Positions 9,001 to 12,000 of a DNA stretch of 64,000 nucleotides are shown here, one piece after another (the first letter of the stretch is position 1; each line of letters begins with the position of its first letter). Made by a program: the position numbers. This DNA is from Escherichia coli (GTDB lineage Bacteria; Pseudomonadota; Gammaproteobacteria; Enterobacterales; Enterobacteriaceae): NCBI RefSeq assembly GCF_051903065.1, contig NZ_CP178439.1; one strand, written 5' to 3'.

Positions 9001-12000
9001 CCATTAAATTGTTAAAGCAAAATCATCCGATAAAATATGTGTCTGAAATGTGTGGGTTTAGTAGTACATCGTACTTTGTATGCCTTTTCAGACAATACTA
9101 TGAGTGTACACCACGTAAATATCTAAAGCATTAGAGAACACCTGCCTTTACTTCCTTATTTTACCAATAATTTCAGCTAAGAGATTTTGATCTAAATGTT
9201 CGTTAATCGTTAAGCTTACTTCTGTACATGCCCTTATATAGATGTTCTGAACGGTGTTATTTCTGACAATGGACTTAAATGTCAGTAACGCCATTACACA
9301 GTTGGCCAACGCGAACAGCAGTATTGGTCGCAACAAAAAATGAAAGAAAAATCCCCCAAATGAAGGGAAAAAACGGAAGAACAGTCGAACGACAGGCACA
9401 AAAAAACCCGACTGGTAATCGGGCTTTTTCGTGTTTTCCAGTCCTGAGTTGGTGGCTCTGACTGGAGGAAGATACTCTACATCCAACATCCACAATATTA
9501 TGGCACTAGACACCAGTTGTCTAGTTTGACTTCAGATTGTCTGTCAATGGCCATTTCTTTAAATGAATTTTATGCGTGCATCTGTATAATCTTTGCGTTG
9601 GCGCTGTACAGTGTGCCTCCCTTGCTTCTAAACCCTGCGCTATCTGGGTATGAACGAATTAAAGTCCTGGCTGAACAAACAGGTGGTGCTGTGTTCAGTG
9701 CTCTGGCAGGAGGAAGGTACTCTACATCCAACAATGTGAGAGAGCCGTTGTGACAGGCGATGTATGAGCAAGCAACGGCGACTTCCTCCAGTATCAACCT
9801 GGAGAAACGGATGATTAACCTGTTAATCATCGTTCTCAGGGCTGTGGTCGCCGTTGCAAACGCGCTGATTGCAGTTCTGGAACTGATCCGTCAGTTCATC
9901 GACTGATGACTGCGGAAACGTAACTAAGGGCAGGAAGTGCACCGCTTCCTGCCCTTTAACAAAGGAGGATTTATGGATTTTATGAGCATTTTGGGGCGCT
10001 GTTTACTTCTTCCTTTCCCTGTTGCGATGTTTGTCGGTTGCCTGTTTCCAGGCATTGATGATCGTTTTACTGGAATGTTCATGAGTTTTATTGTCGGTTG
10101 TCTATCGTGGTATATCACCAAGCCAAAACCGCAAAAGGCTGAGGTCGCGTAAGCGGCCTTTTTTACGTCTCTCGTTTAATTCCTCGCCATTCTGTCCAGA
10201 AATAGTATTGCGGCTAATCAAGCCAATTCCTACGTCTTTTCGCTGTTGCACGATCTAAAAGAAAATATGGGAAAATTTCATGAAAGTATGGTACTAAAGG
10301 GTCTTTAATTCCTTTATCTTGTTCCTTCAACTGCACAGTATCTCGTAAAAACCAACAAGCCGGTTGTTTAAAAAACGCTCTTAGCGTAGGATGTTTTCCA
10401 TTTTCCAAGTGGAACCCAAGTACGATGCCCGCGAAAAAGACAGCCCTCTTATGAAGAGGGCTGTTATCTGATATAGGCTTGTTATGGTCTCACTCTTGAT
10501 TAATCAGGTGTATGTGCAACCTTGGTGCACACAATCGATTATGCAGCTTGATGATCTGAAGTGTTACCGGAAGTATCTTCGGTTCGTTTTTTGTTTGTGA
10601 TGGATTCACTTTTATCTCGCAAGGCTGAGTCTATGACGTTAAACACCTTTTCCCACCGAGAAATCCAACCGCATATAGGTTGAACACGACATTTTTCCAG
10701 GAAGAAATTTAATAAGTTAGTTTTTTTATTATCTTGCACTTTGAATGGTTCAATTACATCATCGGCATCAACAGATTTTCCTCCGATAAACCACGACGGA
10801 TGGGTTTCCATTGCGTCAGAAATGAAATCGTCAGGGAAGAGGCCTTCAATAGCAAAACCACTTCTTACAGAAATATAGTCTTTATTTGACTCAAATCTAA
10901 TTTGTTTTTTACCAAAGTAGCTTTGTAATCTGGTTCTTTCTTTGACCCCAGCTTCATCACCGTCAAAAACAGATATTACGGGGACATCTTTAGAAATAAA
11001 CTCGTAGCACCCTTTCAAGAATCCCCCAAGTTGACTGACTCCACCAAACTCATCAACTTTAGCACTCCTCAGAAAAGGCCATCTGTTCTTAAACTCATCA
11101 TCTTCAGATGTCAATTTCAATATTGATTCTATATATTGTTTGTCGGTGATACCTTCAACGAAAACTGCACTACTTGATATGTTAAAGAAATCAGAAAATC
11201 TGACCCCAAGATTTTCTCTTATGCTTGCAACTGCATTAAATCTTTTTTCATGCTTTTTATCTTTTGTAACACCGGCGTCATCTTTATATAACTCAATGAT
11301 CTTACTTGGCTCATCACTGACAAATGATAAGGAATGAGTTGTAATAAGAACATAAGCAACATCCATCAGTGATTTGAAAATGTGATTACATGACCGGCCT
11401 AATGAGGGATGCAAGAAAGACTCAGGCTCCTCAACCATCCAAATCGTTTTCTTACCTAGAGTAAGTTTTCTCTCTGAAATAGATTTAAATGAAGAAAATA
11501 AAGATAAGCATTGTAGCCCCATACCTTTACTCGATATCACATTCTCAATAGTATCTTTTATTGAAACCTCAAAGCGACCAAATAACTCATCAAGAGATGG
11601 CGGAGCTTTAATAATAAAGCTACAGTCATCTATACCGCTTAGAATCATTTCATTTGTTATCTTTTCAGATACTTCCAACAGTTTATCATGAATCACTTGA
11701 ACCGATGTTTTCATGGCTGAAGCTACTTCACTCCTAACATATGGAACTAATAGATTATGATATATATCATCAATACTTTTTGACGATGGTATATACACAC
11801 ACTCAAAACTAGAAAGTATTTTTTCTATGAACCTTCTTTCAACAGATGTATACATGGAGGAAGTTACTTCAGGTTTCCTCTTGTAACCTTTAAAGACAGT
11901 GTAAAAGTAATTGTTTTTATTAGATATTGTCAGATGTACGGTCACTTCGTTTTGAGGTGACTTTAACCTGGAGTCATCAATCATGTTAAACAGCTGCAAA

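Follow-up and report, generated by a model that had tools for sequence, protein, structure and literature searches.

A probable agrB-dqlB type I toxin-antitoxin module marked by a pair of direct repeats in the multiresistance region of an IncHI2-type plasmid

Direct repeats upstream of two small genes

Why should a short sequence occur twice on the same strand, within a few hundred nucleotides, next to two genes for small hydrophobic proteins? The question is raised by a locus in a 64,000-nucleotide (nt) stretch of Escherichia coli DNA (contig NZ_CP178439.1, assembly GCF_051903065.1), which we refer to at its full length as the window. Our analysis leaves little doubt that the locus belongs to the dinQ-like family of type I toxin-antitoxin systems, as an agrB-dqlB module. 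It lies in the multiresistance region of an IncHI2-type plasmid, within a segment bounded by IS26. Copy 1 of the repeat is the antisense seed in the gene of the antitoxin small RNA (sRNA), encoded on the opposite strand, and copy 2 is the target in the toxin mRNA's 5' untranslated region (5' UTR). This role of the repeats had not been recognised in an earlier description of the locus made from the DNA alone (the sequence-only reading), which had nevertheless suggested a type I toxin-antitoxin-like module.

The two plus-strand copies of the 25-nt sequence GGAGGAAG(A/G)TACTCTACATCCAACA are located at 9464-9488 and 9709-9733, i.e. with a spacing of 245 nt, and are identical at 24 of the 25 positions. 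Their similarity reaches 34 nt (9455-9488 versus 9700-9733), and the longest extension given by a repeat finder covers 9441-9488 and 9686-9733 (39/48 identical). It is the sole repeat pair of such quality with copies at most 500 nt apart in the window, and no comparable pairs were obtained, at either of two stringencies, in 30 block-wise composition-preserving shuffles. The sequence-only reading had correctly reported a 25-bp repeat occurring twice about 240 bp apart, although its positions (9462 and 9706) were off by 2-3 nt. It had also described the repeats as flanking the peptide genes, but both copies lie upstream of them, and the AT-rich character that it ascribed to the DNA is true of the flanks (34-42% GC) and not of the locus itself (48% GC in 9500-9999). 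The 31-amino acid (aa) open reading frame (ORF; 9811-9906), the hairpin (9926-9937/9945-9956) and the 59-aa ORF (9973-10152) were all found as it had placed them.

Identification of the agrB-dqlB module

Positions 9399-9486 of the minus strand match the AgrB model of Rfam (RF02891) over its whole length (model positions 1-84 of 84), with a score of 68.8 bits (gathering score 40) and an E-value of 8.8e-11. This match, which delimits an antitoxin sRNA gene of about 88 nt with a 5' end possibly at 9486-9488, is the single one above the Rfam gathering score in the whole window, so that one sRNA copy is present here. A sigma-70-like promoter (TAGACA, 17-nt spacer, TAATAT; 9495-9523, minus strand) was found for this gene in a promoter scan, with 9 of 12 consensus matches. 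Its predicted -10 box, recognised by consensus match only, has its end 8-9 nt upstream of the sRNA 5' end that homology indicates. The putative intrinsic terminator AAAAAGCCCGAUUACCAGUCGGGUUUUUUU (9399-9428, minus strand) has its stem core at 9407-9423, with a U-run behind it; the sequence corresponds to the terminator stem in the alignment to the Rfam AgrB model and folds as a 15-bp stem. Copy 1 of the repeat (9455-9488, minus strand, containing 9464-9488) lies at the 5' end of this sRNA.

In RefSeq, a gene for a 113-aa "hypothetical protein" (WP_032142515.1; 9148-9489, minus strand) overlies the entire AgrB gene together with its terminator. This protein had no match in Pfam or PADLOC, and the ORF is probably a spurious call. 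In practical terms, the antitoxin sRNA is unannotated in RefSeq and the 113-aa ORF stands in its place.

The toxin gene is located on the plus strand (9811-9906) and encodes the 31-aa hydrophobic peptide MINLLIIVLRAVVAVANALIAVLELIRQFID (RefSeq WP_000609149.1). The peptide matches the NCBIfam equivalog NF041473, "DinQ-like type I toxin DqlB", at positions 1-31/31 with 72.8 bits (cutoff 35), and RefSeq names dqlB at exactly this position in many large E. coli plasmids that are 100% identical to the window over 1.1 kb. The ratio of nonsynonymous to synonymous substitution rates (dN/dS) of dqlB is 0.05-0.20 between loci, and the ORF is under strong purifying selection. A Pfam search of the 31-aa and 59-aa peptides gave nothing significant; the informative models were those of NCBIfam and Rfam. 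Both genes are directly supported as members of their families, which bears out the suggestion of a type I toxin-antitoxin-like module, and the search of Rfam and small-protein databases proposed along with that suggestion returned both AgrB and DqlB.

The system as such is already known, and its toxin gene is already annotated in RefSeq. DinQ-AgrAB was characterised in 2013, when it was established that the 5' 31 nt of AgrB are antisense to dinQ and that only the 5'-processed dinQ transcript is translated (PMC3567139). The dql family was named in 2016, in a study that also described a four-element switch and RNase III cleavage for dinQ (PMC5066626). In 2025, DqlB-agrB was reported to be toxic, rescued by agrB, and to serve as an addiction/stability module on pOXA-48 (PMC12365149) and on the IncX3 plasmid pOXA-484 (PMC12317039). 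With the family already named in 2016 and its role in plasmid addiction validated in 2025, the present identification is a routine annotation result. By analogy with these relatives, the locus in the window would be transcribed and processed, its peptide would be toxic and subject to rescue by AgrB, and the pair would play a role in addiction. On the same grounds, we infer that the module is active and stabilising in its present plasmid.

Predicted pairing of AgrB with the dqlB leader

As the sRNA is read from the opposite strand, the direct repeat in the DNA makes its first 34 nt complementary to copy 2, which is located in the dqlB 5' UTR (9700-9733, plus strand, containing 9709-9733), 77 nt upstream of the start codon. 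The locus can thus serve as an example of short same-strand direct repeats that point to a trans-acting antisense RNA and the site it targets. The 34-nt duplex (sRNA 9488-9455 with mRNA 9700-9733) comprises 31 Watson-Crick pairs, two G·U pairs and one mismatch, and the A/G position at which the two repeat copies differ (the single mismatch in 25) forms one of the G·U pairs. The predicted energy of the duplex is -65.6 kcal/mol, versus -29.8 ± 3.3 kcal/mol for shuffled seeds.

The comparison was extended to related loci of IncX1, X3, X4, I/K, FIB, IncL/M and other plasmids, as well as to the dinQ-agrAB locus of E. coli K-12. Sixteen other modules at 15 loci (IncX1, X3, X4, I/K, FIB and others) are laid out in the same way: AgrB is encoded on the strand opposite to dqlB, and its 5' end is 260-330 nt upstream of the toxin's start codon. 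In the first set of 12 plasmid loci, 11 had an opposite-strand AgrB match at this distance, the exception being IncL/M. The seed and target sequences vary between loci yet match within each locus: the cognate target was the best partner in 13 of 15 sRNA comparisons, with a mean energy of -60.8 kcal/mol for cognate and -42.8 kcal/mol for non-cognate pairs. When 12 distinct seed-target pairs were aligned, 94.9% of the cells were paired, versus 82.9% for shuffled combinations and about 40% when the register was slid. Compensatory double changes occur in 18 of the 34 intermolecular pairs across the 12 distinct loci, a number reached in none of 500 shuffles. One internal mismatch is also kept, and it falls where K-12 agrB and dinQ have their only mismatch. 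These comparisons directly support both the complementarity and its covariation.

Folding of the dqlB mRNA and the proposed switch

The signals of the toxin mRNA, all on the plus strand, were located by alignment and by consensus folding. In an alignment of 13 loci, the dqlB -10 box (TATAAT, 9585-9590) is invariant at 4 of its 6 positions and reads exactly TATAAT in 10 of the 13. The predicted transcription start, G9597, was transferred through the alignment from the mapped dinQ +1; as a check on this transfer, the K-12 target lands at nt 88, as published (PMC5066626). The 5' end of the predicted mRNA (element 1, 9597-9620) is able to pair with the target region (element 2, i.e. repeat copy 2) as a lock stem. 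The Shine-Dalgarno (SD) sequence is sequestered in a hairpin at 9786-9804 (elements 3 and 4), in which the anti-SD CUCCAG (9786-9791) pairs with CUGGAG (9799-9804). The 3' hairpin and putative terminator (9926-9956) is formed by a 12-bp perfect inverted repeat; every locus, K-12 dinQ among them, keeps it with compensatory changes, and in K-12 it is annotated as the terminator.

The consensus fold recovers the lock stem (1:2), a stem-loop, SL2, the SD hairpin and the terminator hairpin, with compensatory changes in 34 of 92 pairs. Such changes are seen in the lock stem (alignment columns 1-23 with 124-141), and the SD hairpin (columns 198-203 with 211-216) is present in every locus of the consensus fold and closed in minimum-energy folds. 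The repeat enters this architecture directly, since GGAGGAAG at 9709-9716 is exactly complementary to the anti-SD CUUCCUCC at 9782-9789. The 5' UTR of dinQ-like toxins requires four elements forming the mutually exclusive helices 1:2, 2:3 and 3:4, the last of which hides the SD; all four elements are present here and their helices covary, so that the conserved RNA elements, too, are directly supported. Their energies resemble those of K-12 dinQ: -28.3 versus -30.4 kcal/mol for 1:2, -16.2 versus -17.0 for 2:3, and -9.7 versus -7.8 for 3:4. The predicted probability that the SD is unpaired was 0.00 for the full-length mRNA, 0.10 for the 5'-truncated form and 0.00 for the AgrB-blocked form, compared with 0.08, 0.22 and 0.02 in the K-12 control. 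The direction of the change in SD accessibility is the same as in dinQ, which served as the positive control.

Based on these features, the following course of events can be proposed. A dqlB mRNA of about 360 nt, running from about 9597 to the hairpin at 9926-9956, would encode a 31-aa membrane-active toxic peptide, and the AgrB sRNA of about 88 nt would be transcribed divergently, from about 9486 to 9399 on the minus strand. The full-length mRNA would be inert, as was shown for dinQ, with its 5' end paired to the target region and its ribosome-binding site (RBS) held in the hairpin. After trimming of the 5' end, the GGAGGAAG of the target could capture the anti-SD and thereby open the RBS. 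The direct repeats would be the interaction sites, with the first 34 nt of the sRNA engaging copy 2 in the toxin 5' UTR; AgrB bound there would block the opening of the RBS and probably trigger cleavage by RNase III. Upon plasmid loss, the sRNA would presumably be gone before the toxin mRNA, and the toxin would kill or arrest the cell (post-segregational killing).

Alternative explanations

Several observations weigh against a module that works in this way. The -35 region of dqlB is weak and the plus-strand promoter was not flagged by a simple promoter scan, and the terminator stem of dqlB is followed by only three U residues. At minimum energy the SD hairpin stays closed whatever the form of the mRNA, the 5'-truncated one included, and this is equally so for the K-12 control; the opening of the SD at the window locus is for this reason proposed by analogy with K-12. 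The complementarity of seed and target could partly be kept by gene conversion between the repeat copies, beside selection on pairing. Finally, the module is located in a mosaic IS26 region and not in the plasmid backbone, which makes a stabilising role for this particular plasmid a presumption.

The last point leads to the proposal that the module came along when part of an IncX-type backbone was swept into the IS26 mosaic, and that it is an inactive passenger, intact in sequence but no longer expressed or no longer involved in maintaining the plasmid. In line with this, the module lies in the 11.8-kb IS26-bounded segment among gene fragments (truncated IS26, MBL-fold, AraC and Tn3 fragments), and the block common with IncX plasmids is only about 1.07 kb long. 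Moreover, dqlB was found in only 5.5% of IncHI plasmids in a published survey (PMC12365149), and so it does not belong to the IncHI backbone. However, none of the functional elements is damaged: the -10 boxes of the two promoters, seed and target, SD hairpin, ORF and the two terminators are all intact. If the toxin were left unrepressed, selection would act against it, and a dead toxin gene would decay; instead, 133 E. coli records carry the 1.1-kb stretch with an identity of at least 99%. We therefore consider a mere passenger unlikely.

Two further explanations concern the repeats themselves. They might have no function in RNA pairing and be leftovers of a tandem duplication or, as the sequence-only reading had envisaged, remnants of a larger degraded gene. 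Their similarity does exceed the pairing core (39/48 identical), the authors of the dinQ study proposed that the sRNA genes arose by duplication (PMC3567139), and a 78-aa ORF (9517-9753), the only long one there, spans the inter-repeat interval. This ORF has no NCBIfam family match, however, and nowhere does the locus alignment vary more than in its region, where the loci differ by indels of variable length; a coding explanation for the interval was rejected on these grounds. Copy 1 is located inside a full-length match to a curated sRNA model with its own terminator, and the repeat core covaries between sRNA and target across loci, the cognate pairs being the best partners, all of which renders the leftover hypothesis very improbable. 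Still less credence can be given to an integrated mobile element as the source of the repeats, which would then be its attachment-site or target-site duplications, e.g. a duplicated tRNA 3' end. The setting might suggest it, as a few hundred nt separate the two direct repeats and the region is a mosaic rich in IS elements, and the sequence around copy 1 (TGGTGGCTCTGACTGGA) superficially resembles the reverse complement of a tRNA 3' end. ARAGORN, however, detected neither tRNA nor tmRNA genes in the whole window, and no integrase or transposase gene lies between or beside the repeats. Furthermore, plasmids with unrelated backbones have the same pair at the same spacing relative to dqlB, as does the chromosome of K-12. 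An origin from a tRNA or attachment site was accordingly rejected, and a role in antisense pairing within an agrB-dqlB module is the explanation that we retain.

Relationship to known systems

Close relatives of the module are found on IncX plasmids, where DqlB-agrB has the same gene order and orientation as in the window and an AgrB Rfam match upstream of dqlB. In the IncX1/X3 plasmid NZ_OX460341 the peptide is identical (WP_000609149.1), the sRNA seed is identical and the 59-aa ORF is present. Since the seeds are the same, the antitoxins of the two modules would be expected to neutralise each other's toxins, and such cross-neutralisation, if true, would affect plasmid displacement. For cross-pairing with IncX1 agrB, the predicted duplex energy is -64.5 kcal/mol, versus -65.6 kcal/mol in the cognate case. 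The IncX3 representative (pNDM-5) differs more: its peptide is identical to the DqlB of the window at 28 of 31 positions, the 59-aa ORF is missing, and seed and target are different (repeat core ACTCTCTACAACTGA), so that predicted cross-pairing with the window module is weak. The modules of the IncX backbones adjoin hns and parA, whereas that of the window lies in an IncHI2 resistance region.

On pOXA-48 (IncL/M), dqlB is accompanied by an antisense sRNA complementary to about 35 nt of its 5' UTR (PMC12365149). In the pOXA-48-like IncL/M representative, the peptide is identical to that of the window at 26 of 31 positions, and the 5' UTR and ORF share about 73% nucleotide identity. The Rfam AgrB model gave no match in this representative at E <= 0.01, which indicates that its sRNA is more diverged. 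This module lacks the 59-aa ORF and is placed in the backbone, between repA and trbC.

DinQ-AgrAB of K-12 is the founding member of the family. Its divergent sRNA is antisense, through its 5' 31 nt, to G88-A119 of the toxin 5' UTR (PMC3567139, PMC5066626); in the window, the target begins at +104 of the predicted transcript. The two loci have in common the -10 box, the lock stem, the SD hairpin, the terminator hairpin and the position of the duplex mismatch. On the other hand, DinQ is 27 aa long and only 10 of 31 residues of the window peptide are identical to it, and K-12 carries two sRNA copies (agrA and agrB) whereas the window has one. On the DinQ equivalog NF041472 the window peptide scores 25.3 bits, below the cutoff of 30. 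In K-12, LexA operators lie over the -10 box of dinQ (CTGTATGATTATCCAG), and the aligned position in the window reads CTGTATAATCTTTGCG, with the right half-site lost. No LexA box (CTGTN8ACAG, at most one mismatch) is present at the window promoter, in 9560-9600. The lack of a LexA box and the NF041472 score below cutoff identify the locus as dqlB and not dinQ. SOS control of the kind known for dinQ was rejected, the only nearby sequence that comes close to a LexA box being inside the transcribed SL2 hairpin (9667-9682), and the module, judged by its promoter, is probably not SOS-controlled.

Other type I systems resemble the module in their general design. TisB-IstR-1, Zor-Orz and ShoB-OhsC likewise combine a small hydrophobic toxin and a long structured 5' UTR with a divergent trans-acting sRNA that pairs upstream of the RBS, and tisB is activated by 5' processing (PMC5066626). 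They are not homologous to the module; the Rfam and NCBIfam searches of the window gave no match to any of these families. TisB, moreover, is LexA-controlled and uses a ribosome standby site. Hok/Sok was also considered and rejected: no sok or hok match reached the Rfam gathering score in the window and the peptide had no Hok match in NCBIfam or Pfam. Sok is an overlapping cis-antisense RNA, whereas the sRNA of the window is trans-encoded, with no overlap between it and its target.

On some plasmids the agrB-dqlB module is present twice, in tandem. On pSI85-1 (IncHI2A/IncN), two tandem agrB-dqlB modules with different seeds lie about 650 nt apart (719-1870). At another locus (L013 in our set), a second, upstream AgrB-like copy (390-477) scores a sub-threshold 37.4 bits and recalls the degenerate agrA of K-12.

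The 59-aa ORF downstream of dqlB

The gene that follows dqlB (9973-10152, plus strand; WP_000347021.1) encodes a small hydrophobic protein of 59 aa, has a strong AGGAGG RBS upstream, and is followed by a predicted intrinsic terminator with an 8-bp stem and TTTTT (10141-10165, plus strand). The protein belongs to no Pfam or NCBIfam family. Of the 44 homologues found, almost every one carries an Enterobacterales label, and none has a name other than "hypothetical" or "putative membrane protein". The ORF accompanies the module, being located directly downstream of agrB-dqlB in all eight carrier loci checked (the window, IncX1, IncX4, IncHI2 and four others), three of which have it frameshifted or truncated. 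Its dN/dS is 0.29-0.45. It is absent from the compared IncI/K, IncL/M, IncX3, IncFIB and K-12 loci and is a lineage-specific companion, not a recognised part of the system.

It is conceivable that this two-helix ORF is a functional third partner in one sub-lineage of agrB-dqlB (IncX1, IncX4 and the IncHI2 block). If so, it could be co-transcribed by read-through past the weak toxin terminator and modulate, or add to, the membrane toxicity. Taken jointly, the proposal that the ORF is such a partner or else that the antitoxin cross-neutralises with that of the IncX1/X3 plasmid must be regarded as rather doubtful.

A promoter-like site on the minus strand (TAAACA, 17 nt, TAAAAT; 9977-10005) is located within the start of the 59-aa ORF and faces the 3' hairpin of dqlB. 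It could be a chance occurrence or could give rise to a short antisense transcript.

Genomic context

A block of about 1.07 kb (9277-10348), comprising agrB, dqlB and the 59-aa ORF, is common to the window and IncX-type plasmids. In blastn searches, the IncX1/X3 plasmid NZ_OX460341 was 91.7% identical to it over 1,095 nt, and an IncX4 plasmid was 81% identical. The module thus resembles a stretch of IncX-type backbone that has come to lie in an IS26 mosaic on an IncHI2 plasmid. As to the plasmid, positions 1026-22138 match an IncHI2 plasmid multiresistance region with floR and ISVsa3, and positions 39001-64000 are 100% identical to an IncHI2 transfer backbone with genes for the MobH relaxase and TraD.

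The segment that carries the module (3026-14851, 11.8 kb) has IS26 copies at its ends (3026-3845 and 14032-14851) and is 99.98% identical to pTBMCR401. The window and pTBMCR401 are collinear over this segment only, and the surrounding arrangement differs, which suggests that agrB-dqlB is carried by an IS26-mediated translocatable unit. Situated in such a multiresistance segment, the module could help the resistance region to persist in the population, and could do likewise for any replicon that takes it up.

Other genes of the segment deserve a brief mention. Positions 7156-9134 contain a truncated IS26 transposase gene, a DUF1158 gene, an intact gene for a RamA-family efflux regulator (7941-8282, minus strand), an MBL-fold fragment and an AraC-type fragment, which together look like a captured chromosomal ramA segment of the Klebsiella type on a plasmid. 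On the other side of the module, a 633-aa AAA_15 ATPase (10539-12440, minus strand) has its best PADLOC matches to Old, AriA and GajA, and its gene is on this basis a candidate OLD-family-like anti-phage defence gene. The neighbouring 169-aa protein (12546-13055, minus strand) is called "peptidase M14" in RefSeq, yet it had no match in Pfam or PADLOC. Farther downstream, two identical, perfect LexA-box-like palindromes, CTGTATGTAAACACAG, occur at 16565-16580 and 20849-20864 within a repeated sequence of at least 80 nt; they are probably part of the end of a mobile element that is repeated in the floR/ISVsa3 region.

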